From Candidatus Krumholzibacteriia bacterium (GTDB lineage: Bacteria > Krumholzibacteriota > Krumholzibacteriia > JAJRXK01): a stretch of 64,000 nucleotides of DNA. A program made the position numbers and the translations under genes. Positions 330-30,849 of this stretch are shown one piece after another (within the stretch, counting starts at the first letter, position 1; each line of letters begins with the position of its first letter). The stretch lies in assembly GCA_041484665.1 (NCBI GenBank), contig JBGPIA010000001.1:192001-256000 (forward strand). The letters run 5' to 3'. The notes under the pieces were generated by a model. That model ran no database searches. It had not been told where the DNA came from and saw only the letters and a list, made by a program, of their open reading frames with translations.

Positions 330-1928
330 TCAGACCGGCGCCAGATGCTCCCCGTCGACCGCAACCGCGCCCTCCCGCGCCAGCTTGGACACCACAGACT
401 GGACGCTGAGGGCGGCGAAGCCATGCATCGAAGCCGGGACGTCGGTGTAGACCCGCGTCACGACCTCCGCAATGGTCCCGGCGCCATCGCGGATGGCGGC
501 CAGGATCGCCGCCTCGCGCGCGCGGCGGTGGGCGAGCTGCGCCACGACGGCCGCTGCGCCTGCCGCCGCGGCCGGGCCGTGCGATGGGAACACCACCCGG
601 GCGGGCAGCTTCGCCAGGCGCTCGAGCGACTCCATGTATTGGACCATGTCTCCGTCACGCGGGTCCACGAGGATACTGGAAAGCGTCGAGATCATGTCGC
701 CCGCGATCAGGCTGCCGTACTCCCGCTCGAAGAAGCACAGGTGCCCGGCGGCGTGCCCTGGGGTGAAGATCGTCTCCAGCTCCCAGCCCGCGCGCCCGCT
801 GGGCGCGCGGCCCAAGGGCAGGCGGTCGCCGTCCTGCAGCGCCCGGTCGACTGCGATGCTGCCCGCCAGCAGGTCGCGGGTCACCGGGTGGGCCCACACC
901 GGCAGCCGCCAGCGCGCGCGCACGCGCTCGACGGCCCCGATGTGATCGGGATGATGGTGCGTCAGCACGATCGCCGCAAGGCGGCGCCCGCGGTCGCAAG
1001 CCTCCTGGAGCACGTCCTGGAGGCGGGCGCCCTCGTCGTCGTAGGGGGTGGCCGGGTCGAGCAGGTAGGCCGGATCGGAGCCGACGAGAAAGGCGTTCGT
1101 GTGGGTCGCGGGCGGAATCGTCGGCGTACGCAGCGGGATGAGCTGCACCGCCGGATTGTAGAAGATGGGATGGATGCGCCCGCGGGTGAACGCGTCGCCC
1201 ATCCGTGTCATCTCGGCCGCGGCGTCGTCCCACCCGTGCCGCTCGAGCACCTGCAGCAGCAAGAGCACAGGCGGAGCGATCAGCAGCTCGCCCGCTCGCC
1301 AGCGGGCGAGCCAACGCTGCGGCGTGTCCCAGCCTCCGTCCACCAGCTCGCCGGGCCAGATCTGTGGCTCGCCTTGGCCCGGCCGTAGCGCGCCCGATTC
1401 GCTCGACGGCTCGCCGGGCTGCTCCTGCGGCGCACGAGGACCCGCTCGTGGCCGGCCCCCACCCGGGAGGTCGTCGAGGTCGGCCTGGAAGAACTGCGTG
1501 TCGAAGCGCAACAGCGTGAAGGCAGGCGTGACCATGCGCGCCAACGGACGCAGCAGCGCGCCGTTGACCCACCCCGCGCGCTCGCACAGCGCCGCGGCGA
1601 AAACCTCCGGATCGACAATCAGGCGTCGGCGCAGGTCATCGCTCTGCACGGCTTCCAGCGGGGGCGATAGCTCCGCCAGGCAGAGCCCTGTCTCCTCCAG
1701 CGCCTCGCGCGCCACTGCGAACATGAACGCGGCCAGGTCGGGTGGGGCGCCACGCACGCTCGCCGCGTGGGCCCCGTCACTGGCGCTTAGCGTGCCCCCG
1801 GGGAAGGCCCACAGGCCGCCGAAGGCGCGCAGCGTCGGCGCGCGGTGGACCAGGTAGACGCGATCATCCTGCGCGGAGCGCCGCAGCACGAGGCCGCAGG
1901 CCGGACGGATGGAGGGGCGCGCCACCAT
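330..1928 (-). CDS. NUDIX hydrolase + metallo-beta-lactamase-fold hydrolase fusion with C-terminal winged helix (LACTB2-like)
   Basis: FPGG...AREALEETG Nudix box; THHHPDHIG, TPGH, GD and PSHG MBL motifs. ATG at 1928 overlaps the upstream stop (ATGA). Confidence 0.85.
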   Translation of the reverse strand: MVARPSIRPACGLVLRRSAQDDRVYLVHRAPTLRAFGGLWAFPGGTLSASDGAHAASVRGAPPDLAAFMFAVAREALEETGLCLAELSPPLEAVQSDDLRRRLIVDPEVFAAALCERAGWVNGALLRPLARMVTPAFTLLRFDTQFFQADLDDLPGGGRPRAGPRAPQEQPGEPSSESGALRPGQGEPQIWPGELVDGGWDTPQRWLARWRAGELLIAPPVLLLLQVLERHGWDDAAAEMTRMGDAFTRGRIHPIFYNPAVQLIPLRTPTIPPATHTNAFLVGSDPAYLLDPATPYDDEGARLQDVLQEACDRGRRLAAIVLTHHHPDHIGAVERVRARWRLPVWAHPVTRDLLAGSIAVDRALQDGDRLPLGRAPSGRAGWELETIFTPGHAAGHLCFFEREYGSLIAGDMISTLSSILVDPRDGDMVQYMESLERLAKLPARVVFPSHGPAAAAGAAAVVAQLAHRRAREAAILAAIRDGAGTIAEVVTRVYTDVPASMHGFAALSVQSVVSKLAREGAVAVDGEHLAPV

Positions 1929-3292
1929 CAGAACGGCACGTCGCCGCCGGTCTCCTCCTCGAGTTTCTTGCGCAGCTGCTGCGCGTGGGAGCGCAGCGCA
2001 TCCACGACCCCCGCAGGCTTGCCCAGCTGCGTGGCCAGCGCGTCGGACTGGAGCGGCGCCGCGGCCTTGGCCCAGTCGCGCCAGCGCGCGAGCGCCGTTA
2101 CCTGCGGGCAGCTGCTGGCCGCGCGGCCGAAGGCCGCCTCGGCGGCGCTGTACTTCCCGGCGGCGAAGCTGTGCAACCCCTCGTCGTAGGCCAACGCGCC
2201 CGCGAGGCTCGTCGGCATCCAGGACGCCGGATCGCCGCCGGGCGCAGCGACGCCGGCGGTCTTCCACAGCTCTGGCAGCGAGCGCGCCAGCGGCAGCAGC
2301 TCCTGTCCCTTGGCGCCGGGATCGATGGACGGTGACGCTGGCTCCCCCGCGCCCGAGCCGCTCAAGGGGATCAGCGCCAGGCGCACGTGCATGGTGCCGT
2401 CCTCGATCACGAGGAAGCTCGTTGCGAGCACCTTCTCCACGCCGCGCTTGGCCAGCGCTTTGGCCGTAATCGTGCGCGCTTGCGCATCGTCGAAGTCGGA
2501 AACGCCGCGCTTGTCGGCCGCCAGCCAGGCCAGGGTGTGGTCCGGGCCCAGGACGGTGATCCCCTTGGCGCCCTTCAGCCCCATCTCCAGCGCAACCGCC
2601 AGCGCCGATGACGCGCCACCGGCTCCCTTGTCCGACCCCTTGTCGGCGCCGCCCAGATCCGCGGGAGGCAGCATGGCCACGGTTGCCGCTCCCGCGCCGG
2701 CATCGTCATCACCGGGCTCGGCGGTCTGGGCTGCGGCGCGCAGCAACGACGCGCGCGTGCGCAGTCGCGCGGAGATTCCGGGCAACAGAACCCCCGCGCG
2801 CTCGTAGTCCTTCGCCGCTCCCTCGCCATCGCCGAGCATCTCGAGGGTCAGCGCGTGATAGCCGGCCAGGTACGGATCGTCAGCGAGCTGCGGGGCGGCG
2901 CGCTCGAGCGCCACCCGGGCATCCTTGTAGAGCCCCAGCCGCGCCTGCACGATGCCGAGGTCGCGCCAGCCAAGGGGGTCGTTGGGCTTGGAGGCCACCT
3001 TCTGGTTGAGCACATCCAGCAGGCCTGAGACCTTGTCGTCCGGCCGGGTCACCGCATCCGTCAGGAGACGCTCGGGCACCGCACCGCTCGCAGAGGACGC
3101 GGCGACAGAGGCCTTGGCCCCCACCGCCGAACTGCCCGTCGTGGCGCCGCACCCGGCAACGGTCAACGCGCAGACGGCCAGCCCGGCCGCGCAGACACCC
3201 AGGGCCAGCGCTGCGAGACCCCGCGCCACCGGCCCGCCCCGGACGACACGCCCATTCGCGCTGCACAGCCCACGGTTTCTCTCTTCGACCAT
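1928..3292 (-). CDS. TPR-containing lipoprotein, possibly with a CsgG/TolB-N-like alpha/beta domain
   Basis: Hydrophobic signal with lipobox VAGC; TPR-like WRDLGIVQARLGLYKDARVALERA; VAMLPPAD strand; C-terminal TPR-like helices. RBS before ATG 3292. Confidence 0.65.
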   Translation of the reverse strand: MVEERNRGLCSANGRVVRGGPVARGLAALALGVCAAGLAVCALTVAGCGATTGSSAVGAKASVAASSASGAVPERLLTDAVTRPDDKVSGLLDVLNQKVASKPNDPLGWRDLGIVQARLGLYKDARVALERAAPQLADDPYLAGYHALTLEMLGDGEGAAKDYERAGVLLPGISARLRTRASLLRAAAQTAEPGDDDAGAGAATVAMLPPADLGGADKGSDKGAGGASSALAVALEMGLKGAKGITVLGPDHTLAWLAADKRGVSDFDDAQARTITAKALAKRGVEKVLATSFLVIEDGTMHVRLALIPLSGSGAGEPASPSIDPGAKGQELLPLARSLPELWKTAGVAAPGGDPASWMPTSLAGALAYDEGLHSFAAGKYSAAEAAFGRAASSCPQVTALARWRDWAKAAAPLQSDALATQLGKPAGVVDALRSHAQQLRKKLEEETGGDVPF

Positions 3293-3368
3293 GTCCCTCA
3301 CCCTCCTTTTCCACTCCACCCGCGCCGCCGGGCCGCACGCCGGCGGCTAAGCCGGCGCGCGTCAGCGG

Positions 3369-4718
3369 TCACTGATTCGCTGTCAACCCCTCCGGCTTGG
3401 GCAGCTCCATCGCCTGCGTGAGTGAGAGCCGCTCCTGCTGCTCGGCAATCGTGTTCATGGCGAACGTGGCGGGCTCGAAGTCGGGTCGCATGTCCAGGGC
3501 GAGCTGCAGCTGCTTGCGCGCGTTGCCGTAGTCCTCCTGGTCGGCGAACTCCAGCGCCTTGTGGTAGTGCTCCAGCGCCAGGACCGACTTGGCGCCTGCG
3601 CCCAGCTGCCCCACGTGCCGTGCGTTCCACTCGGTGAGCCGGCCGCCGGTGACGCACTCCGCCCACTGCACGATGGCCCGCTCGACGACCTTCATCACGT
3701 CAGCGCCCTTCCCCTCCGCCGTCGAGCCGCAGAGGTACTCGCCCGTCTCCACCGTGAACATGCTGATGCCGACCTTCACGCGGTCCTTCGCGTCGCGCAC
3801 GATCGAGCCTTCGATGAAGCCCTGGACGGCCGCGACGTTGCCGGCGCGGACCAGGCTCCCCTGGTCAAGCAGCTTCGCGTTGATCACGGCGTCGGACTTC
3901 AATCCGTTCTGCATGGCGATCTCGCGCATCAGCAGCTCGCGGCGGGTGTACGGCACCACCCGAACCGGCCGGGGCGCAGCGCCCGGGGTCTTCGCCGCTC
4001 CCTTGTCGGCCTTGAGCGTCCTGGAGTTGAGGTTCTCCTCCAGGAGCGACGTGACCAGCGTGGGCAGCGCAGTGGCCAGCGTGCCCAGGTCGAAGTCCTT
4101 GCGCGAGAGGTCGACCACATCGAAGTCAAGCAGCGCCAGGTTGTAGAGCCCGGGGCTGCCGCCCAAGAAACCGAAGGAGCGGTAGGCATCGAAGATGGGC
4201 TGGCGCCAGCTGGCGGGATAGGTGTCCAGCGACTTGGGCCGCCAGGCCGCGTCGTTGCGCAGCACCTCCTGGTAGCACTGCTGCGCGCTGCTGAAGTTCT
4301 TGGCGATCGAATAGAGCTCGGCCATGAGCTCGAGGCTCTCGATGCGCCCGCCCACGCTCATCTCGGCGCGGTGGTTCTCCCAGAGGGCCTTCACGCAGGA
4401 GAAGGATTCGGTGAGCTTGCCGGCGGCGCGCAGGTCGCGGCAGTTCTGCCGCTCGATGCCGAAGGTGTCCACGCCCTTGGCGTCCTCGCCAACCGCGGCG
4501 GAGGCAGCCGCCGGTGGCGTCCCGGCAGTCGCCTGCGTGCCGGGAGCGGTGGGCGTCCCGGCGGCCGGAGGCGTAGCGGTCGGCTTGGCCGTCGTGCCCG
4601 GGGGTGGCGTGCCGGCGGACGGCGGCGGCGTCCCCGCCTGCGACGCGGCAGCCGCCAGCTGCGCGCCGGGGGCCAGGACGATCAGGCCCAGCGCCAGGTA
4701 GTAGAGCGAGCGCTTCAT
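3369..4718 (-). CDS. Secreted TPR + CsgG/FlgO-like domain protein
   Basis: Signal peptide MKRSLYYLALGLIVLAPGAQLAAA; Pro/Thr linker; LALLDFD...RRELLMREI...RAGNVAAVQGFIEGSI pattern; C-terminal TPR. Confidence 0.65.
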   Translation of the reverse strand: MKRSLYYLALGLIVLAPGAQLAAAASQAGTPPPSAGTPPPGTTAKPTATPPAAGTPTAPGTQATAGTPPAAASAAVGEDAKGVDTFGIERQNCRDLRAAGKLTESFSCVKALWENHRAEMSVGGRIESLELMAELYSIAKNFSSAQQCYQEVLRNDAAWRPKSLDTYPASWRQPIFDAYRSFGFLGGSPGLYNLALLDFDVVDLSRKDFDLGTLATALPTLVTSLLEENLNSRTLKADKGAAKTPGAAPRPVRVVPYTRRELLMREIAMQNGLKSDAVINAKLLDQGSLVRAGNVAAVQGFIEGSIVRDAKDRVKVGISMFTVETGEYLCGSTAEGKGADVMKVVERAIVQWAECVTGGRLTEWNARHVGQLGAGAKSVLALEHYHKALEFADQEDYGNARKQLQLALDMRPDFEPATFAMNTIAEQQERLSLTQAMELPKPEGLTANQ

Positions 4719-4771
4719 GGTTGGGTCTCCTTCCACAGCGGGGACTGCACGCGCACAGGGGTGGCGAGCGC

Positions 4772-6370
4772 CTAGGACCCCAGGTCGACCTCGATCTCCT
4801 CTCCGTCCGTCTGGACCTCGAGGGGGATGAGCTTGGGTGCGAGCAGCCCTCCCTTGGCGCGGATGGTATGCCGGCCCGGCGTGAGACGCACCTTCCAGAT
4901 CATGGGGTCCGGCCCCGGGCTGTAGCTATCCTTGTCGTCGACCACCAGCTCCCTCACGTTGCCGTAGGGGTGGCCGCCCTTGCGGAAGCGCAGCACCGCC
5001 TGCACGAGCTTGGGTCCAACGATCTCGATGCGGCGCAGCAGGGGCTGGAGGTCCGCGCGTCCGACGGCGGTCAGGCGCAGGACGAAGGGCCCCGGCGAGA
5101 GCCCAGCCGTCGACCACCGCGCGCCCCCCGTCGAAGCGCCTCCGCTGAAAACGCGCGTCCAGGTCGCGCTGCCCGCGTCGGGCGCGCCCTCGATCAGCAT
5201 GTTGCCGTCGACTCCGGCAGTGCCCCAGCGAACCTCGAGCATGTCGCCCGCGGGCACCTGCTGTCCAGCGCCCGGGGACTCCCACCACAGGCCGCCCTCG
5301 ACCTTGAGCGCCCCCGCCAGGCGCGACACCTCGCCTCCCGCGCTGCCCGTCACCACCAGGTTCCAGGCGCCCGCCGAGACGAGGCCGGCCGCGACCGAGA
5401 GCTCGAGCGCGTCGGCGGACTTCGAGACGATCTTGCAGCTGACGCTCTCCCGGCCGTGCTCCAGCGAAGCCGCGATGGCACGGTCGAGGTGGCTCCCGCT
5501 GACGCGCAGGCGGCCGTCCCAGCCGGCGCTAGCGACCACGCGCGCCGGCTCGACGGCCTTGGGCTGCGGTGGCGGCTGGAAGGTCTCGACCTTCTCCTGC
5601 ACCTGCCGGACGTGGGGATCGGTGCCGGTACTCACGAACCACCGCAGCGGAAAGTCGACGCTGCCGCGCAGCGCGTCAAAGGAGCGCACCAGCTCCAGAT
5701 GATACTCCTGCTCGCCGCGTTTCATCCGGAACAGCAGGTCGTCGATCTGGATCGGGACTACGTAGACCGCAGGCTCGCCCTCTTTGGCCGTCACGCCCGG
5801 CTCCAACGCCCCGTGCAACCCCTCGACCGGGTCGTCGTGCTGGTTCTTAACGGCGACGAAGGTCGTGACCTTCTGGCTGAGGAACTCGCTCGCCCGATCG
5901 TTGAGCAGCACCTGGCGCAGCTTGCCCCTCTCGAAGGTGGCCTTGCTCAGCTCGAGAGTGAGGCGGTCCGGGTCGGAGCCCGGGTAGCGCAGGACGCCCA
6001 CGACGCGCTCGGCCTCGATCTCGCCACGGCGCTGGCTGCCCTTGACCGTGAGCTTGGCCGTACGGGCGCGAGCGGGTGGGAGCGGCTGCGGTGTCACGAG
6101 CTCGCCGGTCTTCTGCAGCCTGAGCGCGTACTCCATGTCCTCCAGCAGCTCGTTGCTGTCCACGAGCAGTGCGCTGCCCTGGCCGGTAAGGTCCGGATCG
6201 CCCTCGACCTCCACCTCGAAGCTGAACGGCGCCATGATCTGCCAGATGCGGAACGCCCCCAGCGCTCCCACCAGCACGGTGATGAGGAGCACGGGCAGGC
6301 GCATCCGGGCCCACGGGCCGCGCGGACGCCGCGGCGGCAGGGCAGCGGAGGAGGGCGCGGACTCAGGCAT
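4772..6370 (-). CDS. Membrane-anchored protein with Ig-like/beta-sandwich domains (PEGA-like C-terminus)
   Basis: N-terminal TM LPVLLITVLVGALGAF; beta-rich body; C-terminal LTPGRHTIRAKG. Start uncertain (6370 or 6304). Confidence 0.55.
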   Translation of the reverse strand: MPESAPSSAALPPRRPRGPWARMRLPVLLITVLVGALGAFRIWQIMAPFSFEVEVEGDPDLTGQGSALLVDSNELLEDMEYALRLQKTGELVTPQPLPPARARTAKLTVKGSQRRGEIEAERVVGVLRYPGSDPDRLTLELSKATFERGKLRQVLLNDRASEFLSQKVTTFVAVKNQHDDPVEGLHGALEPGVTAKEGEPAVYVVPIQIDDLLFRMKRGEQEYHLELVRSFDALRGSVDFPLRWFVSTGTDPHVRQVQEKVETFQPPPQPKAVEPARVVASAGWDGRLRVSGSHLDRAIAASLEHGRESVSCKIVSKSADALELSVAAGLVSAGAWNLVVTGSAGGEVSRLAGALKVEGGLWWESPGAGQQVPAGDMLEVRWGTAGVDGNMLIEGAPDAGSATWTRVFSGGASTGGARWSTAGLSPGPFVLRLTAVGRADLQPLLRRIEIVGPKLVQAVLRFRKGGHPYGNVRELVVDDKDSYSPGPDPMIWKVRLTPGRHTIRAKGGLLAPKLIPLEVQTDGEEIEVDLGS

Positions 6371-6389
6371 GATGGGGCGCGCCGAGGCG

Positions 6390-6974
6390 CTACTTGCAGC
6401 CCGCTGGATCGACCAGGACCTGCGCGTCCTTGCCAACCTTGGGGAAGAGCCGGTCCTGCGTGCCGATGCATGGCTCACCGCCGTGGATCAGGAACAGGGT
6501 GAGCACCTTTACGATGATGTTGCGCCCCTTGCCCTTCATCTGTACGGGGGAGTTCAGCTCGATCGGCGCGCCATCGGCGCCCACGGTCGATTCGAACAAG
6601 AGCGACAGCTTGCCGGCCTTGCCAGCGAAGCCATTGCCCTTGGCGTCGGTCACCTTGACCACGACGGGCGTGCCTTCCTTCAGTGCCACACAGCCCGAGA
6701 GGACCTTGTTGCGCGCGATCTCCCCCTGCAGCACCGCGCCCTTTTTTACGCTCCCGCTGCAGAACGGCGTCGGGAAGCGCACCTCCAGACTGTCTCCCTG
6801 GGCCAGCATGAGCTGCGTGTACTGGGCCCCGCCCGCTGCGGAGCCGGGCGCCGCAGCGCCGGCCGGGGTGGATGCCGCCCCGAGCGCGGCCGCCCACAGC
6901 AGGGCAATCAACGCAATCGCCGTGCCCGCTGCGGAGCCGGCCGAGCTGCCCTTCGCTTCGCGATTCGTTCGCAC
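6390..6974 (-). CDS. Secreted protein with a TrbI/VirB10-like beta-barrel domain
   Basis: GTG start with AGGAGG RBS; signal peptide; ALKEGTPVVVKVTDAKGNGFAGKAGKLSLLFEST..DGAPIEL pattern followed by a short hydrophobic segment. Confidence 0.55.
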   Translation of the reverse strand: MRTNREAKGSSAGSAAGTAIALIALLWAAALGAASTPAGAAAPGSAAGGAQYTQLMLAQGDSLEVRFPTPFCSGSVKKGAVLQGEIARNKVLSGCVALKEGTPVVVKVTDAKGNGFAGKAGKLSLLFESTVGADGAPIELNSPVQMKGKGRNIIVKVLTLFLIHGGEPCIGTQDRLFPKVGKDAQVLVDPAGCK

Positions 6975-7106
6975 CGTCGAACACCTCCTGCACCGGAATG
7001 TCAGCCGCCCGCCCGCTCGCCCGGGCCGGCACGCTTGGGCCGTCACGCTCGGGCCGCTACGCTCAGTCCCACACGCCCGGGCCGGCGCGTTCGCGCCCGC
7101 GGGGCG

Positions 7107-10100
7107 TCATGGCAGCTCGGGGAGGGCGGCAGCGAGCTCCGTCCACCACCGGGGTTTGAATTCGAACTGCAGCGTCGCCACGTCGCTGCCGCCCGACGAC
7201 GGCGGCGGCAGGGCGGCCGAGGACGCGGCGATCTGCCGGGCCGTCTCGGGCGCGACGCGCGCCGTGAGCGTGCCCAAGAGCGACGTGGCTACGTGGCCAT
7301 CCCTGGGCGGGTCCACATAGAGGTGGAACCAGACCATCCCCTTATTCTCCTCGCGGCCCTGGATCAACAGCCGGTCCTGCGGCCCCACGGCCAGCGTGCC
7401 GCCGGCGTCCACGCGGGCCGTCGCGAAGCCGGTCCCGGGCGCCGCGAGCATCGGCGGCGCGAGCACCGAGATCAGCTCGGTGGCTGAGCCACCCGCGACG
7501 CGGCTCACGGTGATGCGCGGCCGGGCAACCTGTCGGCGCGTGCCCGAGTAGTCGGCGACCGAAAGCAGATGGACTTCGATCTGCTGGAGCGGGATCGGGA
7601 AGGGGCGCCCAAACGCCGCCACCAGCTCGCGGGCGGCAGCAACCCGCGCCTTCTCGCGTGGGTCACCCTCCAGCTGCCCCAGGTCGATCGCGGAGAGTTG
7701 GCGCACCAGAGCCGCCACGTTATTGAGCGCCGCCGCGCAGGTGGCGTCGCTCGCGCCACGCAGCTGGCCCACCGCCCCGCGCAGCTTCCCGTACACGTCG
7801 CGGAAGACGGCCTGGTGGCTCTGCGCCTGGTGCTGGTTGCGGGCCAGCCACGCGCTGCAGAGATCCCCGTAGAAGCCCTGGCCCAGCGCGCCGCGCGCGC
7901 CCTGCATCGCGGCGGCCACCGCCGGCGGCGCGGGGGACGGAGCGGCCTCGATCTGGCCCAGCACATCGATCATGCGCGCCAGCGCCTCCTGACTGGGCGC
8001 CGGCAGCGCCGCATCGCCCAGACGCGCGTAGACGCTCTTCGCCGCGCCGGTCTGCGGACCGCCGATCGCGCGCCATGCCTCCAGCTTCCAACGCGCGACA
8101 TGTGCGGCATAGTCGGCGACGGTGCAGGGGCTGGCCGCCGCGTTCGCCGGGCACAGCGCCACCGCTGCCGCAAGCAGCGCCTCGCCCTTGCCGGCCGCTC
8201 CGCCTGCCACCGCGCGCGCCGCCGCGTAGAACGCGTCCGCCTGCGCCAGCCGGCCGGGCACGGGCCGTCCGCCGTCGCGCAGGCGCGCCGCAGCGGCCTG
8301 CGCTTTCTTCACTCGCTCGGCCAGGTCGCCCTCGCTCAATGCAGCCGCACGATAGGGCACGGCCAGGGCCAGCGCGGAGAGCCCCGCGCGCTGCTCGGCG
8401 TCCATCAGGTCGCTGGCGGCGGCGGCGCCCTCGGCGATCTGGGCCAGCGTGGCCGGCGCGGCACAGCGCTCGGGGAACCCATCGGCGGCGGCCAGTAGTG
8501 CGCGAGCCGCCCGGGTGAACCCATCGCCCCCGCGCGTAGCAGCCAGCTTGCCCGCTGCGTCGGCGGCGCGCTGCAGAGCGTGCGCGCGGGCGACCGCCGT
8601 GCCCGTCACCGGATCGTTCTCCTTGCCCTCGGCCGAGGGCACGTGCAGCCTGCGCTCCTGCGCGTTGTAGGCCGCACGCAGCTGATCCAATGAGCCGGCG
8701 CTGAGCAGCTTCTGCAGCCCCTGCAGGCGGACCACCGACTCCGCGGCAGTCTGCGCTGCCTCCTGCAGGCTGGCCGCCACGGCCTTGAGGCTCTCGTCGC
8801 CGCGCGCCGACTTCGCGGCCTTCACCAGCTGCTCCTCGAGCGCGGGACACTCGGTGTCCAGCGCCGCGCTCGCGCGCTCGCCCAACGTTGTCAGCGCCGA
8901 CTTCATGGCCTCGGTGAGATCGAAATCGCGCGCGCCTTGGGCCAGCATCTGGGAGAGGATACCCTCGTGCTCGTCGACGAGCTGCGCAAGCGTCTTCGCG
9001 CTGGCGCGCCGCAGGCGCTCGCCGGACTGTACGTTCCCCGACTCCTGGCGGGCCGAGCGCGACAGCAGCACGCCCACGAGCGCGCCGGTGACCAGCACCG
9101 AGACGGCCACGATCACCAGGCCGCTGCGCGAGCGCCGCGAGCGACGAGACGAAGGTGGCAACGGCGGCGCCGGGGGTGGGACGCCGGCGGGCCGGTGCTG
9201 GAAGGGAAGCGCCGCGGCGCCGACACCCTCACCGGCGCCTTCGCGCAGCACGCCGCCGGCGGGATGCGGCGCCGCGGCGCCGGCCGCCGCGGTCGCCGCC
9301 GCCAGCGAGCCGACCTCGCTGCGACGCACCAGGCCCGTCGCGTGCGCCCAGTCCCGACGCTCCAGCGCCGCGAACAGATCGTTGACGTATCCAGTGGCGT
9401 CCGGCGGCAGCTGCGGCGGGCGCATGTCCTGCACCATCTGCAACGAGCGGCGGAAACTCGCCTCGTCCTGGCGCATGGCGGCCACTGCGAAGTTCTCGGC
9501 GTTGCGGTAGGCGAAGGTGGCCAGGCTCAGCCAGCGCCGCCGTGCGACCGGCGCCAGCTCCATCAGCTGCCCGAACACCTCCTCGGCCGCCGGGCTGTCG
9601 CTGGCCGAGGGCAGATGCAGGCGTCCCTCGGACAAGAGCCGCGTTAGCATCGCCCGCAGCATCGGGTACCGCTCGGGGAAGATCGCCCGCAGATCCTCGG
9701 CGCCGGTGGGATCCGACGGGAACTCCATGGGCGGGAAGGGCGTCTCAGGCGTCCACGCCTTCAGCAGCTCGCAGCGGCGACCGAGATGGAAGGGGTTGAA
9801 GTCGAGGGCGGCGTACATCTCCGCAGGAATGCGCACGATGTGGCGCAGCAACGCCCCGGGCCGCCCGCCGGCGTCGCGCCCCTGGTAGGTGATCTGGATG
9901 ACGGCGTAGTGCGATGGGTTGCCCGGCGGCGGGTCCTGATTCCACAGCGGAACCTGTACCAGCGCCCGTGTGAAGTCGGCCCCGGGCTCGTACTCGCCCC
10001 ACTGGTTGCAGATCTGCTCGTGCTGCTCGATGGCAGCCGCGTCCAGCCCAGGAGTGACAGCATGGGTGTGATGGCCGGGCTTGAGCCCGGGCAGGGCAAG

Positions 10101-10133: not shown

Positions 10134-10179
10134 GCGACCGCCAGTGCTTCGCGGCGCGCGACGGCGCGGCTGCCGGGAG

Positions 10180-22862: not shown

Positions 22863-23255
22863 TCACGCCTCCAAGTCGTAATCCAACGTCAGGAGTTGAC
22901 GCGTGGCCCGCACCGTGGCGACCACTCGGATGCGGCGGTAGGGGAAGTAGCGCCCCGGATCCTTGCCCGTGAATTCGATCTTGTCCACCACGATGCGCGG
23001 CTCGCAACGGCCCAGCGCATTGCGGATCTCGCGCACGACGTCCTGGGCCCGCCCCTGACGGAACTCGTGGTGCGGCAGGTCGGCCCCGAAGTCGGGATCG
23101 CCCGCTGTGCCCGGCGGTTTGGCAGCACCCTGCACCGGGTTGGTGAGGACCAGCCGGATGGTGTGGGCGATGGAGTCCTCCAGCGAGCCGGAGGCCATGC
23201 GGCCGCCTTCCAGGCGCAACGGGAGCACGAGGTAGGGTGCGCGTTCGTCCGGCAT
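22863..23255 (-). CDS. tssE: GPW/gp25-family baseplate protein TssE
   Basis: YLVLPLRL...SLEDSIAHTIRLVLT...DPDFG...IRNALGRCEPRI. Confidence 0.85.
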   Translation of the reverse strand: MPDERAPYLVLPLRLEGGRMASGSLEDSIAHTIRLVLTNPVQGAAKPPGTAGDPDFGADLPHHEFRQGRAQDVVREIRNALGRCEPRIVVDKIEFTGKDPGRYFPYRRIRVVATVRATRQLLTLDYDLEA

Positions 23256-23256
23256 C

Positions 23257-25083
23257 TCAGTTGAGCTTGACCATGGCGCCCTTGACCGAGACCTCCGAGC
23301 CGCCCTGGACCTCCACCTTCATCTTACCGCCCACCTTGGTGTTCATGCCGGAGACCTCCACGTCCGCGTTGGACTGTATGAGGATCTTGCCCTTGGCCTT
23401 CAGGTTGAGCTCGCCCTCGGCCTCCAGGCTGATGTTCTTCTTCGACTTGATGGAGATGTCCTCGTCGGCCTGCACCGTGACTTTTTTCTTCGCCGTGACG
23501 TTGACGTCGCCCTCGGTGGCGATCTCGATCTTGGCCTTGGGGTCGCTCTTGTCGTGTACCAGCGTGATGCGGTTCTTCTTGTCGGGCGTGGTGATCTCGA
23601 TCTTCTCCTCGTCCTTCGTATCGCGGAAGAGGATCTGGTGGCCGCTCTTGGTGAGCAGCACCTTCGCCTCGTTCTTGTCGTAGTCATTCTCGGCGGCCTT
23701 GACGGGCGCCATCTCCGCCGGTCCCCTGCCGTTGTACAGGCTTCCGATCACCACTGGCTGCATCAGATCACCGCCCACGAACGCCACTACCACCTCGTCA
23801 TCGACCTCGGGCAGGAAGTACATGCCCCAGCTCCTGCCGGCGTGGGGCATGGCCACGCGCGCCCAGTTGCTGTCCTGGTCGCCGCTGTCCCCGAGCAGAT
23901 GATGGTACCTGACCTTCACACGTCCGCGCTTCTCGGGGTCCCTGTTGTCGGTGACCACGCCGGCGAACACGTTCGGCTGTTGCGGCCGCTGGAGTGTGCG
24001 CTGCGGATGGGCGATGTCGGTCGGGACGCAGGTGAAGCGATTGCGGTAGCCGCGGCCGTCGCCCTGCAGGGTGTGGCGTACCCGCGTGACGTAGTACTTC
24101 CCCTTCTGGTCTGCGCTCACCCCCGAGATCGTGAGCTCGGTCCCCGGGTCGAGGCCGAGATCGTCGCTCTCCCCCATCCCGACCACCAGGCCGGCGAGCC
24201 AGCCCTCGCGCAGGTGCTGCAACTCTCGGTCGAGCTCGCCGAGATCGCTGGGCGGAAGCGACGGGAGTAGGTGCCCCAGCTTGTTGAAGCTCTGCTGGCT
24301 GCGGTCCTTCGCCTTCACGGCATAGGGATGGCTGGCGCTGTCCGGCGGCTTCGTCTCGCCGAACAGCGGCTTGTGGCTCTTGGCGTCCCAGCCCCGAGCG
24401 GCGAACTTGCCAGGCGCCATGCGCAGCTTCACGCTGAAACGGTGCAGCGCCGCCTCGGTCTCCTCGCCACCCATGGAGAGCTTGGAGCTGCCCGCCTGGA
24501 GGTTCGCCGCGACCTTCAGCTTCTGCCCGTCATACCACGCCCACAGCCCCTCCAGCTGGCACATGCGCCGCAAGAAATCGTAGTCGGTCTCGCCGTGCTG
24601 GAGGACGTATTCGTGCTTGGTCGTGGTGGTCGCGCTGACCTCGCAGAACGCTCCATAGGAAGACGCCAACTGCTTGAGCGCATCCGCGGTGGTCATCTGC
24701 AGCCAGCGGATGTTGCGCGGCACGCCGTCCATCAGGATGGTCTGGGAGGCGCCCCGCAGCGTCACGGAGTAGGCGCCCGTGAGCAGACGCTGGTGGCGCA
24801 CTTCGGTGACGATGCCCTTGAACTTGATGCCCTGCTCCGCGGTCTTGCCCTGCCAGGCGGCCTCGATCTCCAGCGGCTGGCCCAGTGCGTCGTAGAGGCC
24901 ATCGAGCGGCTCGCTGCCGCCGCCCACCAGGTCGCCGGCGTCGGCGGCCAGGCTCAAGCACTCCACGCTGAAGGTGTGGTGCCCCCACAGTGGCTGGTCG
25001 AGGACGATGCTGCCGCAGCGGATCTTCTTGCTGGCGAGGTCGGTCCCCGACAGCTTCACGGACACCTTGGTGGCGAACGCCAT
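23257..25083 (-). CDS. vgrG: VgrG spike protein (gp27 + gp5 OB-fold + short beta-helix)
   Basis: QHGETDYDFLRR, VTDNRDPEKRGRVKV, WARVAMPHAG, FLPEVDDEVVVAF; ends VKGAMVKLN. Confidence 0.92.
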   Translation of the reverse strand: MAFATKVSVKLSGTDLASKKIRCGSIVLDQPLWGHHTFSVECLSLAADAGDLVGGGSEPLDGLYDALGQPLEIEAAWQGKTAEQGIKFKGIVTEVRHQRLLTGAYSVTLRGASQTILMDGVPRNIRWLQMTTADALKQLASSYGAFCEVSATTTTKHEYVLQHGETDYDFLRRMCQLEGLWAWYDGQKLKVAANLQAGSSKLSMGGEETEAALHRFSVKLRMAPGKFAARGWDAKSHKPLFGETKPPDSASHPYAVKAKDRSQQSFNKLGHLLPSLPPSDLGELDRELQHLREGWLAGLVVGMGESDDLGLDPGTELTISGVSADQKGKYYVTRVRHTLQGDGRGYRNRFTCVPTDIAHPQRTLQRPQQPNVFAGVVTDNRDPEKRGRVKVRYHHLLGDSGDQDSNWARVAMPHAGRSWGMYFLPEVDDEVVVAFVGGDLMQPVVIGSLYNGRGPAEMAPVKAAENDYDKNEAKVLLTKSGHQILFRDTKDEEKIEITTPDKKNRITLVHDKSDPKAKIEIATEGDVNVTAKKKVTVQADEDISIKSKKNISLEAEGELNLKAKGKILIQSNADVEVSGMNTKVGGKMKVEVQGGSEVSVKGAMVKLN

Positions 25084-25174: not shown

Positions 25175-25606
25175 CTACATCAGCTCGGCGCCCCACGTGC
25201 TGTTGGGATCGCCCCACTGCACGCCATTGATCGTCAAGGATGGCGCGGAGACGAAGAAGATCTCGGTCTGCGGCGCCTCGCGGGCCTGGTTGACGTGGGG
25301 AACGACCTCCTCGTAGCTCTCGATGAACCCGTTCTTCCACTCCAGGGTCTTGAGGACCTTGTTCTCCTTGCGGGGATCGAGGAACTCGATCTTGCCCGCC
25401 TTGAAGTACTCCTGGTGGGGCTTGATGGCCCAGGTCCAGTAGTCGGTGGCCTCATCGGAGCGGCGGGTGATCTTGATGGAGGCCAGGCGCGGCCGGCTGT
25501 CCACCGGGGCGCCGTTGGTGTCCTTGCCGACGTCGAGTCCGTACTCCACGTCCAGCACGTTGGGGACGGCATTGCCGTCGATCGAAACACGGAACTGCTT
25601 GGCCAT
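25175..25606 (-). CDS. tssD: T6SS tube protein TssD/Hcp (Bacteroidota-type), paralog 2
   Basis: NVLDVEYG...D.NGAP, WAI....FKAGKIEF, KTLEWKNGFIESYEE. Confidence 0.8.
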   Translation of the reverse strand: MAKQFRVSIDGNAVPNVLDVEYGLDVGKDTNGAPVDSRPRLASIKITRRSDEATDYWTWAIKPHQEYFKAGKIEFLDPRKENKVLKTLEWKNGFIESYEEVVPHVNQAREAPQTEIFFVSAPSLTINGVQWGDPNSTWGAELM

Positions 25607-25724: not shown

Positions 25725-26120
25725 CTACTTGTTCTTCCAGTCGAAATTGTGCTCCTCGCCCTCGACGCTGATGATCTCGGGCTCGATGATGAACATCTCC
25801 TCCACGTGGTCCCCCGTGTCGGAGTACTCCACGCTGTACTGGCGGACGTACGCCTTCTTGAACTCCAGCGCCTTCATCTTGAGACCATTGGCGTCCACGA
25901 ACGTGATCTTGCCGGCCTTGCGGTTGGCATCGTTGGCGTCGGCCGCCCACTCGGCGATGTCCACCACCTCGTCGGCCACGCGCCGTACGAGGATGCCGTC
26001 GCACAGCACCTGACGGGTCGGGGCGCCGTCGCGGTCCTTGGCGGCCCGCACGCCGTAGCGCACCTCCAGGATGTTCTTCATCTCGTTTCCGTCGATCTCG
26101 ACCTTGGGTTGCCGGGCCAT
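25725..26120 (-). CDS. tssD: T6SS tube protein TssD/Hcp (Bacteroidota-type), paralog 1
   Basis: KDRDGAPT, EWAAD....KAGKITF, MKALEFKKAYVRQYSVEY, terminal HNFDW. Confidence 0.82.
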   Translation of the reverse strand: MARQPKVEIDGNEMKNILEVRYGVRAAKDRDGAPTRQVLCDGILVRRVADEVVDIAEWAADANDANRKAGKITFVDANGLKMKALEFKKAYVRQYSVEYSDTGDHVEEMFIIEPEIISVEGEEHNFDWKNK

Positions 26121-26188
26121 CACTCCTCCTTACATTTGGGCTTGCCCCGGCCTCACTGGACGAGCGGCCTCGTCCACAGGGACCGATC

Positions 26189-27628
26189 TCACGCGGACGC
26201 GACCGAGACGTCGTTGTTGCCGGCCGGATCCTCCTTCACCAGCACATTGAAGGAGTGGACCGACTGTTTGAAACCGAGCTTGAGCTGCACGTCCACCTCG
26301 TGGCGAGCGCGCTGCTCCGGCGTCGCGCGCACCTCGACCTCGGCCGAGTCGAGCGGTTTGGTGTCGCCGACGCACTCGTTGAGGAACTTGCGCAGGTCCT
26401 TCTGGATGGCGGCCAGCGTCTGGTTCGTGATGTTCTTGAACGCCTGCTTGTTGAGGTAGTGGCAGACGTTCTTCACGATCCAGTCCTCGGTGCGGATGCG
26501 GGAGTAGGTGTCCAGCCCCTCCTTGGCGGAGAGGTTCCAGTCGCCCAGCACGCGCACCTTGCCGTCCCAAAAGGCCGTGGGGATGATCCCCAGCTGCTTC
26601 ATCTTGGCCACCTTGTCACGGTCCAGGCGGAAGCGGTCCTTCTGCGGGCCCTGGATGCCGCCCTTCACGTACCCCGCGGCCGACTCGTGGGTTCCCATGG
26701 TGTCGTCGCAGGAGTAGATCAGGCCGGCCAGGTGGGCCGAGGGCGAGACGTAGAGGTCATCGTCCTCGAACTCGTGGCGAGCCCGCCCCATCAGATGGTT
26801 GCCCACCAGCGAGACGTACTGGCGCTCGGGAGTGCTCCCCTTGAGCCCCTCGTAGCCGGTCTCCATCACATCCACCATCGAGTCGTAAGTCTCGTAGTCC
26901 TCCACGTCGGCGAAGACCTGCACCTTGTACATCTCCCCCAGCTTGCCCAGGCGCTCCACTTCCTGGATGCCGCCCGGCCAGTTGGGGACGACCATGGTGG
27001 AATAGACGTTCTTGAGGCTGAAGAACTTGTACTCGCTGCGCAAGGTGTCGGCCAGCGAGTCGAACACCGTACGATCGTCGGAGTCCATGAGCTGCTCGGC
27101 CGTGGCGTTGAAGAACCAGGCGTCGACCGCCTTGCCCGGCTCGGTCTGCGCGTTCGAGAAGAAGCCGTCGATGGCCCGGTAGGCCTTCTCGATGGGCCGG
27201 ACCTGCTCGAAGACGCTGCGCAGGTTCTCGTTGAGCAGCTCGGTGAGCTGCTCCACGCGCTCGCCGGCCTTCTCCTGCACCTCGTCGAGGTCCTCACCGG
27301 CCTCGATGGCCTTGATCCAGGCCGCCAGGCGCTGCTGCAGCAGCTTACGCGGCTGCTCCCAGGTGCTCTTCTCGAGGAAGTCCTTGTACTGCGACTTCTT
27401 CGCGGGGTCCACCAGGCTGAGCGCCGGCAGGTTCACGCCGTCGGACACCGCCTTGGGCATCATCTTGCCCAGCCAGGTCATGGCCTTCTTGGCGTCACCC
27501 AGCCCCAGGCCCGACAACGATGCGGAGTACTCTTCGGCCGTTTGCGCCTCCCCGGCGGGAACTGCGGGCTCGGCGTGGACGGGCTCGGGAGCCTGGGGTT
27601 GCTGTTGCTGGTTCAGCTCATCGGTCAT
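26189..27628 (-). CDS. tssC: T6SS contractile sheath large subunit TssC (Bacteroidota DUF5458-like)
   Basis: RPIEKAYRAIDGFFSN, LYVSPSAHLAG, AAGYVKGG, TYSRIRTEDWIVK...YLNKQAF. Confidence 0.85.
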   Translation of the reverse strand: MTDELNQQQQPQAPEPVHAEPAVPAGEAQTAEEYSASLSGLGLGDAKKAMTWLGKMMPKAVSDGVNLPALSLVDPAKKSQYKDFLEKSTWEQPRKLLQQRLAAWIKAIEAGEDLDEVQEKAGERVEQLTELLNENLRSVFEQVRPIEKAYRAIDGFFSNAQTEPGKAVDAWFFNATAEQLMDSDDRTVFDSLADTLRSEYKFFSLKNVYSTMVVPNWPGGIQEVERLGKLGEMYKVQVFADVEDYETYDSMVDVMETGYEGLKGSTPERQYVSLVGNHLMGRARHEFEDDDLYVSPSAHLAGLIYSCDDTMGTHESAAGYVKGGIQGPQKDRFRLDRDKVAKMKQLGIIPTAFWDGKVRVLGDWNLSAKEGLDTYSRIRTEDWIVKNVCHYLNKQAFKNITNQTLAAIQKDLRKFLNECVGDTKPLDSAEVEVRATPEQRARHEVDVQLKLGFKQSVHSFNVLVKEDPAGNNDVSVASA

Positions 27629-27642: not shown

Positions 27643-28092
27643 CTATGCCTCGCCGCCGAGAGCGGACAACGTGGCCTTGAAACCGTTGAGCAGCTGCTCG
27701 CGCTGCTTGGGATCGCTGAGGGCCTTGCGCAAGGTCGCGTTGGTTTTCATGGCCTTGAGGAACTCGGCCAGGATCAGCTTCTCGTTCTTCACGGCCGTGA
27801 GTCGCTCGCTCTGGGCCACCACTGAGTCGACGCTGAAGTCCTTGATGGCGTTGAAGCGGAACTCCGACGACTCGGTCTCACCCTGGTCGTTCTTCACCTC
27901 CGCCTCCACCCGCGGCTGGTAGGTCCCGAAGACGTCAACGATCGACTTGCATTGGGTCAGGGTCGGCTCGGCCCCAGCGTTCTCGTTGAGCGGAGCCACG
28001 AACACCGTGCGGTTGCTATCGAGGATCTCGACTGCCATCGATTGGTCGATCTCCTTGATGTGGTCCGCGAACATATGCTTCAGCTTCGCCAT
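27643..28092 (-). CDS. tssB: T6SS contractile sheath small subunit TssB (Bacteroidota-type)
   Basis: C-terminal part of ORF 27643..29256 from ATG 28092: NRTVFVAPL...KSIVDVFGTYQPRVE...EFRFNAIKDF...LRKAL. Confidence 0.82.
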   Translation of the reverse strand: MAKLKHMFADHIKEIDQSMAVEILDSNRTVFVAPLNENAGAEPTLTQCKSIVDVFGTYQPRVEAEVKNDQGETESSEFRFNAIKDFSVDSVVAQSERLTAVKNEKLILAEFLKAMKTNATLRKALSDPKQREQLLNGFKATLSALGGEA

Positions 28093-28401: not shown

Positions 28402-30849
28402 ATGAGCACCCGCCGCTGGAAGCCCGAGGTCACCGAGGCCCTCACGCGCGCGTCCCAGATCGCCAAGGAGCGCGGGCACGCCACGGTCGGTCCGCTGCAC
28501 CTCTTCTACGCGTTGCTGGTACCCGATGCAGGTGGGGCCGCGCTGATCCTGCGCTCCATGGGGCGCGAGGTGGCGCACGTGCGCGATCGCCTCGACGCCG
28601 CGCTGGACGCCGTGGAAAAACCGCCGCGCCCGGTCTACGAGCCCAAGCCCGACAAGGCCTTCCAGGCGGCGATCGACCTGGCCGAGACCGAGCGCAAGGT
28701 GCTCGAGGAGGAGGAGCTCAACGAGGGACACCTGCTGATCGCGTTGACCAGCGTCGACGGCGGGCTGGACAGGGAGCTGCGCAAGGAGCTGGGGATCAAG
28801 CGCGGACAGATCGTCGACGCGCTGCGCGATGTGGGGAAGGCCAAGGCGCTCGCTTCCGCCGGCGGCCCGCCGGAAGCCGCGCTCACCGGCAGCATGATGC
28901 AGTTCTGCACCGACCTGACCGGCGAGGCGCGCAGCGGCGAGCTCGATCCCGTCATCGGCCGCGAGCGCGAGACCGCCCAGTTGGTGGAGGTGCTGGGGCG
29001 CCGGCGCAAGAACAACGCCGTGCTGGTGGGCGAGCCCGGCGTGGGGAAAACGGCCATCGTCGAGGGGCTGGCCATGGCCATCGCCAAGGGGCACGTGCCC
29101 AGCGTGCTGGCCAATACGCGGGTGCTGGTGCTGGATCTGGCGGCGATGGTGGCCGGCGCCAAGTACAAGGGCGAGTTCGAGGAGCGCTTCAAGAAGCTGA
29201 TCAAGGAGCTCGAGGGCACCGCCGGCCAGGGCCTGCTGTTCGTCGACGAGCTGCACACGTTGCTGAGCGCGGGCGGCGGCGGCGGCGGCATGGACGCGGC
29301 CAACCTGCTCAAGCCCGCGCTTGCCCGCGGGACGCTGCGCATGATCGGGGCTACGACCATCGGAGAGTACCGTAAGTACATCGAGAAGGACGCGGCCTTC
29401 GCCCGCCGCTTCGTGCGCATCGACGTCGCCGAGCCTGACGAGCCCATCTGCTTACGAATCCTCAAGGGCGTGCGCCCCAAGTATGAGGAGCACCACAAGG
29501 TCAAGATCGCCGACGACGCGCTGGAGGCTGCGGTGACCCTCTCCAAGCGCTACCTGCCCGACCGCTTCCTGCCCGATAAGGCCGTGGATCTGCTGGATGA
29601 GTGCGCATCCAACATGAAGATCTTCACCGAGCGGCTGGCGATGTTGCGCGAGCGCGGCAAGGAGATCGACGATCTGAAGGACGATGACGCGTCGGCGCCC
29701 GCGCTGGAGAACTGGGCCGGGGTGCTCGAGACCCTTGCCGACGGGCTCAAGGCCCGCGGCCTGGAGGCCGCCTTCGACCTGGGCGACCGGGGTAAGGCGG
29801 CGCTGGCCGGTGCGCGCGGCGCCGTGCTCGACGCCGCGGCGAACGTCCCGTCCCATGTTGACTCGGGCCAGGTCGGCGCACGCGTCAGCCTGCGCACCGG
29901 CATCCCCGTCAGCAAGATGATGGGCAAGGAGCGCGAGCGCCTGGCCAACATCGAGCAGTACCTGCACGAGCGGCTGATTGGGCAGCACGACGCGGTGCGC
30001 TCGGTCGCCAATGCGGTGCGCAAGGGGCGCGCCGGGCTCAAGCGCCCCAACCTCCCGGTGGGCAGTTTCCTGTTCCTGGGGCCTACCGGCACGGGCAAGA
30101 CCGAGTTGGCCAAGACCCTGGCGGAGTTCCTGTTCGCGGACGAGAAGGCGATGATCCGCTTCGACATGAGCGAGTTCCAGCAGGAGCACACCGTGCAGCG
30201 CATGATCGGCGCCCCTCCCGGCTACGTCGGCTACGAGGAGGGCGGCCAGCTTACCGAGGCCGTGCGCCGCAAGCCGTACTGCGTGCTGCTCTTCGACGAG
30301 ATCGAGAAGGCCAACAAGCGCGTCTTCGACATCTTCCTGCAAGTGCTCGACGACGGCCGGCTGACCGACGGCCAGAGCCGTACGGTGGACTTCTCCAACA
30401 CCGTGGTGATCATGACCAGCAACATGGGCGGTCTTTGGATCGCGGAGCAAGACACCGCAGGCAAGCCCATCGACCCCACGTACCTTCGGAACATGCTCAT
30501 CGACGAGGGGCGCGGGCTGCGGCCGGAGTTCGTGAACCGCTTCGACGAGTTCGTGATCTTCCACAGCCTCAAGCACGAGGAGGTCCGCCAGATCCTCGAG
30601 CTGCAGCTGAAGGGGCTGCGCAAGATGCTCAAGGCGCAGGGGCTCTCGCTTTCGGTCAGCGATCCTGCCATGACGAAGCTGGCGCAGTGGAGCTACGACC
30701 CGGCGATGGGCGCCCGCCCGGTGCGCCGCACGATCGACCAACGCATCATCAATCCGCTGTCCGAGAAGATCGTCAGCGCCCCCGAGACAGCGGGCAAGAC
30801 CGTCCAGGTCGATGTGGCGGGCGACGAGCTCGCGATCTCGGTCGTCTAA
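28402..30849 (+). CDS. clpV: ClpV/TssH-like Clp AAA+ ATPase
   Basis: Clp N-domain; Walker A GEPGVGKT and GPTGTGKT; GAPPGYVGYEEGG; divergent from tssB. Confidence 0.8.
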   Translation: MSTRRWKPEVTEALTRASQIAKERGHATVGPLHLFYALLVPDAGGAALILRSMGREVAHVRDRLDAALDAVEKPPRPVYEPKPDKAFQAAIDLAETERKVLEEEELNEGHLLIALTSVDGGLDRELRKELGIKRGQIVDALRDVGKAKALASAGGPPEAALTGSMMQFCTDLTGEARSGELDPVIGRERETAQLVEVLGRRRKNNAVLVGEPGVGKTAIVEGLAMAIAKGHVPSVLANTRVLVLDLAAMVAGAKYKGEFEERFKKLIKELEGTAGQGLLFVDELHTLLSAGGGGGGMDAANLLKPALARGTLRMIGATTIGEYRKYIEKDAAFARRFVRIDVAEPDEPICLRILKGVRPKYEEHHKVKIADDALEAAVTLSKRYLPDRFLPDKAVDLLDECASNMKIFTERLAMLRERGKEIDDLKDDDASAPALENWAGVLETLADGLKARGLEAAFDLGDRGKAALAGARGAVLDAAANVPSHVDSGQVGARVSLRTGIPVSKMMGKERERLANIEQYLHERLIGQHDAVRSVANAVRKGRAGLKRPNLPVGSFLFLGPTGTGKTELAKTLAEFLFADEKAMIRFDMSEFQQEHTVQRMIGAPPGYVGYEEGGQLTEAVRRKPYCVLLFDEIEKANKRVFDIFLQVLDDGRLTDGQSRTVDFSNTVVIMTSNMGGLWIAEQDTAGKPIDPTYLRNMLIDEGRGLRPEFVNRFDEFVIFHSLKHEEVRQILELQLKGLRKMLKAQGLSLSVSDPAMTKLAQWSYDPAMGARPVRRTIDQRIINPLSEKIVSAPETAGKTVQVDVAGDELAISVV

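Follow-up and report, generated by a model that had tools for sequence, protein, structure and literature searches.

A type VI secretion system locus of uncultured Krumholzibacteriota and Zixibacteria with a candidate GTPase-bearing envelope anchor

Introduction

How is a contractile secretion needle held in the cell envelope when neither of the known membrane complexes can be recognized around it? This question is raised by a type VI secretion system (T6SS) locus in a 64,000-nucleotide stretch of DNA from a Candidatus Krumholzibacteriia bacterium (GenBank assembly GCA_041484665.1, contig JBGPIA010000001.1, positions 192,001 to 256,000). We call this whole stretch the window; it is part of a 5.45 Mb genome (G000) that is 93.65% complete, with a GC content of about 70% and a composition that is continuous across the T6SS locus. 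An earlier note, made from the letters alone, had described the locus as a distinct T6SS variant outside Bacteroidota, and our study supports this: neither known anchor set was found, and conserved envelope genes lie beside the core. Eleven accessory open reading frames (ORFs) with a coding-like GC content at third codon positions lie within 1928-20067; they are numbered g01-g07 and g09-g12 from left to right, the eighth position being that of tssK. We estimate at roughly 0.68 the probability that the products of g07 and g06, perhaps together with that of g04, form the envelope anchor, a reading that draws on sequence comparison and on analogy with known systems. The locus would then encode a cell-anchored T6SS of uncultured Krumholzibacteriota and Zixibacteria whose sheath, tube, spike and TssK are sister to those of the Bacteroidota subtype (T6SS-iii).

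Results

Contractile core and subtype affinity

The core genes named in the earlier note were all recovered in place with Pfam, and they are single-copy in the genome, tssD excepted. On the reverse strand are encoded the small sheath subunit TssB (27643..28092, 149 aa; T6SS_VipA 9e-7), the large sheath subunit TssC of the Bacteroidota type (26189..27628, 479 aa; PF17541 3e-62, and trees), the tube proteins TssD1 (25725..26123, 132 aa; PF17642 3e-17) and TssD2 (25175..25606, 143 aa; PF17642 2e-11), the spike VgrG (23257..25083; Phage_base_V and Phage_GPD, Pfam 5e-26), in whose 608 aa no C-terminal effector extension was seen, TssE (22863..23255, 130 aa; GPW_gp25 1e-8), TssF (21099..22850, 583 aa; T6SS_TssF 2.5e-6), TssG (20132..21106, about 324 aa; T6SS_TssG 1.8e-18) and the Bacteroidota-like baseplate adaptor TssK (13738..15207, 489 aa; VasE 5e-5, TIGR03353 3e-9). 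The sheath, tube and spike proteins pass their Pfam cut-offs, as do TssE, TssF and TssG. TssK falls just under its own (22.6 vs 23.4); it matches a T6SS-iii TssK profile at 5e-17 and gives no match to a subtype i (T6SS-i) TssK profile. Divergent from tssB on the forward strand lies the clpV-type Clp AAA+ ATPase gene (28402..30849, 815 aa; Pfam AAA_2/ClpB_D2), whose product scores 687 bits with TIGR03345, below the cut-off, and stays below all NCBIfam cut-offs with the ClpB model on top; its orthologues adjoin tssB in six of six relatives. A search with a small profile gave no match to TssA, a protein mentioned 0 times in the available text of PMC10781749 and so outside the T6SS-iii part list given there. 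A TssG search of plasmids also gave no match.

Comparison of the core proteins with reference T6SS-iii and T6SS-i loci (2-5 references a side) gave clearly higher scores against Bacteroidota T6SS-iii for TssB, TssC, TssD1, TssE, TssK and VgrG. The difference reaches 153-186 bits against 18-24 bits for TssC (the latter with four subtype-i TssC proteins) and 44-59 against 16-23 bits for TssK. Of the Bacteroidota forms proposed earlier for TssB, TssC, TssD and TssF, the first three stand, whereas TssF does not discriminate (best 32 bits for T6SS-iii and 31 for T6SS-i); TssG leans toward subtype i (35 vs 25 bits). We also built the TssC phylogeny that the note had proposed, with 23 sequences, five of them from Bacteroidota, and with long branches in play. 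The new sequences and the five Bacteroidota group together against subtype i (100/100), and the five form a clade of their own (100/100) with the window TssC outside it. Nesting of the window TssC within that clade, that is, in ordinary T6SS-iii, is rejected by the approximately unbiased (AU) test (p 1.2e-5), and the host is not a member of Bacteroidota. A quick tree of 32 rows agrees. A single clade for all TssC sequences of the new type is neither recovered with support nor rejected (AU p 0.18), with a weak placement of locus L025 and long branches.

Search for known membrane complexes

The statement that neither TssJLM nor TssNOPQR is recognizable holds for the TssJ, TssL, TssM, TssN, TssO and TssR families, which were not found genome-wide in searches run with controls. 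In the 93.65% complete genome there was no match to DotU (TssL), IcmF-N (TssM, PF14331) or TssJ (PF12790), and the controls for absent families were positive in E. coli or in Bacteroidota plasmids; PF12790 itself was found in three of four TssM-bearing relatives and in E. coli. The only matches to TssL profiles in the genome are to the OmpA tail of the long TssL form. TssN gave no match in the window's genome and four relatives (control 3e-69), and in a second phylum none of 151 genomes had a TssN match that passed the cut-off. TssO and TssR gave none in four genomes including the window's own (controls 2e-43 and 6e-44); according to the accessible part of PMC10781749, profiles for these two proteins miss 27-31% of Bacteroidota systems. 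Small home-made profiles for TssO and TssQ found no match, and one for TssP found a single generic PKD match on another contig and none in 80 related loci. Profile comparison of eight accessory families with TssN, TssO, TssQ, TssP and TssR was likewise negative, and no accessory gene is predicted to encode more than one membrane helix. The earlier count of about eleven uncharacterized envelope genes is right as to the eleven ORFs; two of them do have a characterized domain, DO-GTPase2 in g06 and GAP1-N2 in g05.

Two genes in the tssL-tssM slot

A scan of species genomes with a g06 alignment confirmed 121 relatives, and our locus counts rest on the best 80 of these, a set selected by g06 in which 10 kb flanks and contig ends restrict the counts of outer genes. 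Within it, g07 is present in 71 loci, tssK in 70, g04 in 65, tssF in 58 and tssC in 51, followed by g12-like genes (37), g10 (34), g02/g09 (32) and g05 (6). The usual gene order is clpV-B-C-D-vgrG-E-F-G-K-g07-g06-g04, facing kinase-g02-g09-g10-g12, of which the window is a rearranged form, and tssK-g07-g06 is contiguous in all 70 loci that hold tssK. The nearest named locus (L023, Krumholzibacteriota) has 49% identity across the whole of g06 and keeps the order tssK-g07-g06-g05. Named g07 homologues come from Krumholzibacteria, Zixibacteria and Latescibacteria. Some loci, L039 among them, are titled Ignavibacteria, and for these the phylum grouping and the TssC tree point to Zixibacteria: the phylum sample around the L039 genome includes the genome of a Zixiibacteriota-titled locus, and the L039 TssC groups with Zixibacteria.

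Co-occurrence was tested without g06 selection in 272 genomes, 121 from the host phylum and 151 from the second phylum, identified as Zixibacteria by a named locus in the sample. Of the host-phylum genomes, 12 have TssC (PF17541), and these 12 and no others have g07; in the second phylum TssC occurs in 79 and g07 in 76, all within those 79, counts in which kin genomes are not independent samples. The co-occurrence of the 1.9-20 kb genes with the core, which the note had suggested examining, is thus strict for g07 (12/12 and 76/79) and not exclusive for g10, which accompanies TssC in 12/12 host-phylum genomes and is also present in 11 genomes without it. Canonical TssM was found in 13 of the 121 host-phylum genomes, none of them among the 12 with TssC, and six of the 13 have g10. 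Two loci of this phylum (L131:13621-19292 and L134:3040-8613) are canonical T6SS-i with tssJKLM, FHA, PP2C and kinase genes. In two genomes (G065 and G052), a complete tssJ-K-L-M faces g12-g10-g09-g02-kinase just as tssK-g07-g06-g04 does in the new system; therefore, g07 and g06 hold the slot of tssL and tssM. According to the available text of PMC10781749, the membrane dock of TssK is the product of the gene next to tssK in each of the two known subtypes.

Candidate anchor proteins

The gene g07 (12628..13650, reverse strand) encodes 340 aa with an all-helical cytoplasmic domain and one C-terminal membrane helix at about residue 278, the topology of TssL. Its structure model has a mean confidence (predicted local distance difference test, pLDDT) of 87. 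Foldseek gave no match under E 0.25 and the Atlas no usable match. In a full structural search, the model aligned with Francisella DotU at Z 6.7 and a root-mean-square deviation (rmsd) of 3.9 over 130 of 155 residues, a model-based match that is a hint and no more. By slot and topology, g07 is a candidate TssL counterpart.

Directly following is g06 (10180..12624, reverse strand), whose 814-aa product, a candidate TssM counterpart, has a cytoplasmic TRAFAC GTPase domain (DO-GTPase2, 32.2 bits against a cut-off of 27) and one membrane helix, beyond which a helical rod in the periplasm leads to a beta domain at the end. TssM has the same layout of NTPase, membrane helix, periplasmic helices and beta domain. 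The small-GTPase fold was recovered in the structural search at Z 16.6. Among 74 family members, G1 is kept in 73, DYxG in 72, TKxD in 74 and TKxDxLxGF in 71; g06 is probably an active GTPase, since its nucleotide motifs are kept in 71-74 of the 74. The Walker B glutamate (DYxGE) is present in the window protein and in only 9/74 members. Profile comparison with the TssM NTPase gave 75-86%. The aligned part, at most 130 columns, lies in the second half of the NTPase; it starts at strand 4, takes in TKxDxxxGF and ends with the last strand. In the genome-wide ORF search, seven of eight TssM proteins stood within the first 17 rows and none of six host GTPase-like ORFs scored; weak IcmF-N matches were seen in five of 48 g06 homologues.

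Next to g06, g05 (7107..10133, reverse strand) encodes 1008 aa with a GAP1-N2 domain (37.1 bits, cut-off 24), a membrane helix and a long periplasmic part. It stands after g06 in 6/80 loci and in three further genomes. That position had suggested a remote TagF, an idea dropped when the score (16.8) equalled the shuffled maximum (16.8). The DO-GTPase2/GAP1-N2 pair was defined by Kaur et al. 2020 (PMC7159879).

Finally, g04 (6390..7046, reverse strand, start uncertain) encodes a small exported beta protein with a hydrophobic hairpin and is a candidate outer piece of the anchor. Among the 121 host-phylum genomes, it was matched under 1e-27 in 11 of the 12 with TssC, the twelfth being cut by contig ends; weaker paralogues exist in eight others, and strong matches are confined to TssC genomes. 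A likeness to VirB10/TrbI is a weak lead, for which an Atlas match at 0.81 was the sole indication; it found no support in Pfam, PDB or profile comparison.

Accessory module and neighbouring genes

The remaining accessory genes belong either to a shared module or to the window's own family. To the module belong g02 (3369..4718, reverse), an exported TPR and CsgG-like protein (family profile match 4e-87) whose family members match CsgG at 7e-14 to 5e-18; g09 (15664..16950, forward), a TPR lipoprotein with a lipobox and a CsgG-like domain (one homologue matches CsgG), profile-homologous to the g02 family at 99.9%; g10 (16947..18119, forward), an exported, probable outer-membrane beta-barrel as judged by sequence pattern and not by folding, found in 23/121 genomes, of which 11 lack iii-type TssC; and g12 (19060..20067, forward), a predicted lipoprotein (lipobox; c12 family profile 7e-15). 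Lineage-restricted are g01 (1928..3319, reverse), a TPR lipoprotein and g09 paralogue (98.6% profile match) with one homologue among the examined loci; g03 (4772..6370, reverse), with one membrane helix and periplasmic domains, which occupies the place of the Ser/Thr kinase gene of relatives and has only one homologue among the examined loci; and g11 (18116..19063, forward), exported and without a Pfam or NCBIfam match, whose homologues in three examined loci include two that adjoin g10 with no T6SS genes in view. Next to the system, these three genes were seen in no family other than that of the window. A kinase remnant in g03 was considered and rejected, the match to the kinase tail (4.8%) not being significant.

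In the host phylum, the TPR/CsgG/barrel/lipoprotein module also lies beside canonical tssJKLM, and it occurs in five genomes that yielded neither TssC-iii nor TssM. As it flanks both kinds of T6SS and is present where neither was found, it is therefore not the missing membrane complex; we regard g02, g09, g10 and g12 as an envelope module in its own right, more likely for sensing or positioning (a Ser/Thr kinase accompanies it in most relatives) than as a channel. Four further loci (L132, L133, L135 and L136) hold this module or parts of it, sometimes with g11, and no T6SS gene in the stretch.

Outside the core, an orphan PAAR-type protein (G000:C3:289560-291461, reverse strand) is likely the spike tip of this T6SS. 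It has an extra domain that also occurs in PAAR fusions and in T6SS-adjacent genes of relatives, and that is weakly matched (E 1e-4) by the N-terminus of a 1066-aa window protein (43298-46498, forward) with a zinc-peptidase motif at residue 926. A peptidoglycan-binding protein gene (46593-47963, forward) follows the gene of this protein, and the two are a candidate effector pair 12 kb from clpV. To the right of clpV are two L,D-transpeptidase genes and one upstream gene (32503-35236, forward); in G139, two of these have homologues at a distance of about 13 kb from the T6SS, a putative T6SS link. In one Zixibacteria lineage (L181 and L183, from G255 and G139), the Clp ATPase gene is split into two ORFs, and G255 has a tssC broken into three pieces and a truncated tssD, which suggests decay. 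Elsewhere in the window are, directly after g01, a fusion of NUDIX and metallo-beta-lactamase-fold domains with a winged helix (330-2267, reverse), probably housekeeping, a peptidase S74 protein with a FlgD/T9SS-tail protein (51711-54127), and TPR proteins with ExbB, ExbD and TonB genes (58229-63867, reverse).

Discussion

Proposed mechanism

By known T6SS biology, TssE, TssF, TssG, TssK and VgrG would form the baseplate, TssD and TssBC would polymerize, contraction would fire the spike and ClpV would recycle the sheath, with a PAAR protein presumably supplied from another contig. By analogy with TssL and TssM, g07 and g06 would offer TssK a dock in their cytoplasmic domains; g06 would cross the inner membrane and span part of the periplasm by its helical rod and beta domain, and g04 would be the outer piece, standing in for the lipoprotein TssJ. 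The g06 GTPase keeps all its nucleotide motifs, so that assembly or firing is probably under the control of a GTP cycle, in which g05 with its GAP1-N2 domain may be a partner in some lineages. The g06 GTPase may share ancestry with the TssM NTPase domain, and ATPase activity of TssM is reported in the consulted part of PMC3346141.

The anchor that the note had attributed to the eleven interleaved genes is thus narrowed to g07, g06 and g04, which are specific to the system, the other genes, g05 apart, being part of the shared module or restricted to the family. The term "replaced" may be too strong: because of the similarity between g06 and TssM and the TssL-TssM position and topology of g07-g06, extreme divergence from TssL/TssM is as live as replacement. 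If the two proteins do form the anchor, they may descend truly from TssL and TssM or derive from an independent recruitment of a DO-GTPase module.

Alternative explanations

It is important to consider that several observations weigh against an anchor made of g07 and g06. For g07, the comparison with TssL profiles gives 0.1-0.4%, no sequence link, and the Francisella DotU fold match ranks 25th, among generic helical repeats. For g06, the similarity to TssM spans half of the GTPase domain only (best single-sequence E 4e-4), the periplasmic parts do not align (0.9%), the protein is about 400 residues shorter than TssM (630-840 aa vs about 1150-1200), and DO-GTPase families, described in the available passages of PMC7159879 as intracellular conflict systems, fit it better than IcmF-N. 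Ten of 80 loci are without tssK, and contig ends explain about three only; the core in G215 ends at g07, and g06 lies elsewhere in some genomes. No lipoprotein equal to TssJ or TssR was identified, the role of g04 follows from its position only, and the kinship of the counted genomes noted above tells in the same direction.

A little short of even odds, in our judgement, g07 and g06 are true, extremely diverged orthologues of TssL and TssM, so that a T6SS-iii-type needle sits on an ancient anchor of the TssLM type in which TssJ alone has been exchanged. This is compatible with the anchor role and differs on ancestry. The common gene order and topology, the shared TKxDxxxGF motif and helical insert, the weak IcmF-N matches (5/48) and the alignment with Francisella DotU (130/155 residues, Z 6.7, rmsd 3.9) speak for such descent; yet that Z lies within the background of helical proteins, g07 gives no sequence signal and the periplasmic halves stay unaligned. 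It seems unlikely that g06 and g05 are instead a DO-GTPase/GAP1 conflict switch recruited to regulate the needle, such as by firing on phage or envelope damage, with g07 alone or an unrecognized part, possibly diverged TssNQOPR, as the structural anchor. Both proteins exceed their DO-GTPase2 and GAP1-N2 cut-offs and keep the published order, and even within Bacteroidota profiles often fail to detect TssO, TssQ and TssR, as stated in the accessible text of PMC10781749. Moreover, g06 can sit off the core: in five of the ten loci without tssK (L041, L049, L060, L070 and L082) it is at a second locus, preceded by a PEGA protein gene and 2-3 PD40 lipoprotein genes in tandem, and in three of the five a PAAR gene is near. 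However, GAP1 is present in only 6/80 loci while g06 is retained, TssN is near-ubiquitous in T6SS-iii and has five membrane helices against at most one predicted for any accessory gene, and the eight accessory families have no profile match to the TssN/O/Q/P/R set.

CsgG-family domains form rings, and an outer-membrane passage of the new anchor built from the CsgG-like and beta-barrel proteins g02, g09, g10 and g12 has to be considered, the more so as 32-37 of 80 loci have the module next to the core and none of the 12 TssC genomes lacks g10. We find this quite improbable: the module flanks complete tssJKLM as well, persists in the five genomes with neither TssC-iii nor TssM found, and in many loci does not appear within the 10 kb that follow g06. 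Least probable of all is a free or released contractile injection system, comparable to extracellular contractile injection systems (eCIS), with membrane genes that merely tether or release it. VgrG scores best, though under the cut-off, with a VgrG-related model, and the small profile found no TssA; but the split TssB/TssC sheath, TssK and the Clp-type recycling ATPase are T6SS traits, and TssA is outside the T6SS-iii part list in the available text of PMC10781749 (0 occurrences).

Significance

Open-access literature searches found no description of a T6SS of this g07/g06 type, and the variant is apparently undescribed. In the parts of PMC10781749 available to us, T6SS-iii is confined to Bacteroidota, over 20,000 complete genomes from elsewhere having none, and three scenarios are given for how the two non-homologous membrane complexes arose. 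Their origin becomes testable with a sister lineage of T6SS-iii whose candidate anchor bears a GTPase and has the shape of TssL/TssM, and this lineage may show how T6SS anchors evolved; replacement in Bacteroidota would be favoured if the homology of g06/g07 with TssLM holds. The locus also offers a T6SS in which the NTPase of the proposed anchor retains the complete set of GTPase motifs, and it brings an orphan family of "conflict" GTPases together with a secretion machine. The weapon is common in uncultured sediment and soil lineages (79/151 genomes in one phylum sample), and current membrane-complex profiles would miss it. More tentatively, and with the odds leaning against it, this could be a third T6SS anchor architecture, found in about half of Zixibacteria, in which an active membrane GTPase, a GAP1 partner and a VirB10-like outer piece preserve an ancestral TssL/TssM-type anchor on a subtype-iii-type needle. 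If this is true, the TssNQOPR complex of Bacteroidota would be a later replacement, and TssM and the DO-GTPase conflict systems would share one root.

Comparison with known systems

By definition, eCIS of the Afp/PVC type have a single-gene sheath, no TssK and a non-Clp ATPase, and the split sheath, TssK and Clp ATPase of the present system set it apart from them. With the DO-GTPase/GAP1-N2 conflict systems it shares the succession of a DO-GTPase2 and a GAP1-N2 gene, the products of both having membrane helices. It differs from them in its place within a T6SS operon, in its single GTPase, in the absence of GAP1 from most loci, and in having the Walker B glutamate in only 9/74 members of the g06 family; no zinc ribbon or FNIII partner was seen (FNIII had no Pfam match among the locus ORFs), and the passages of PMC7159879 at hand and its two supplements hold no T6SS link. 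TssB, TssC, TssD, TssE, TssK and VgrG are of the T6SS-iii type, and in both systems the gene adjoining tssK encodes a membrane protein. Unlike T6SS-iii, the host is outside Bacteroidota, TssC is outside the Bacteroidota clade, TssN, TssO and TssR were not found, a GTPase gene follows instead, and TssG leans toward subtype i. From T6SS-i, the system differs in its sheath and tube, which are not of the VipA/VipB/Hcp type, and in giving no match to the DotU, IcmF-N or TssJ families, whereas the order tssK-X-Y, the topologies of X and Y, a remote similarity of g06 to the TssM NTPase, a Ser/Thr kinase nearby in relatives and, in the host phylum, the envelope module are common to both. This variant is real and widespread, and it is a member of neither subtype i nor subtype iii as these are defined.

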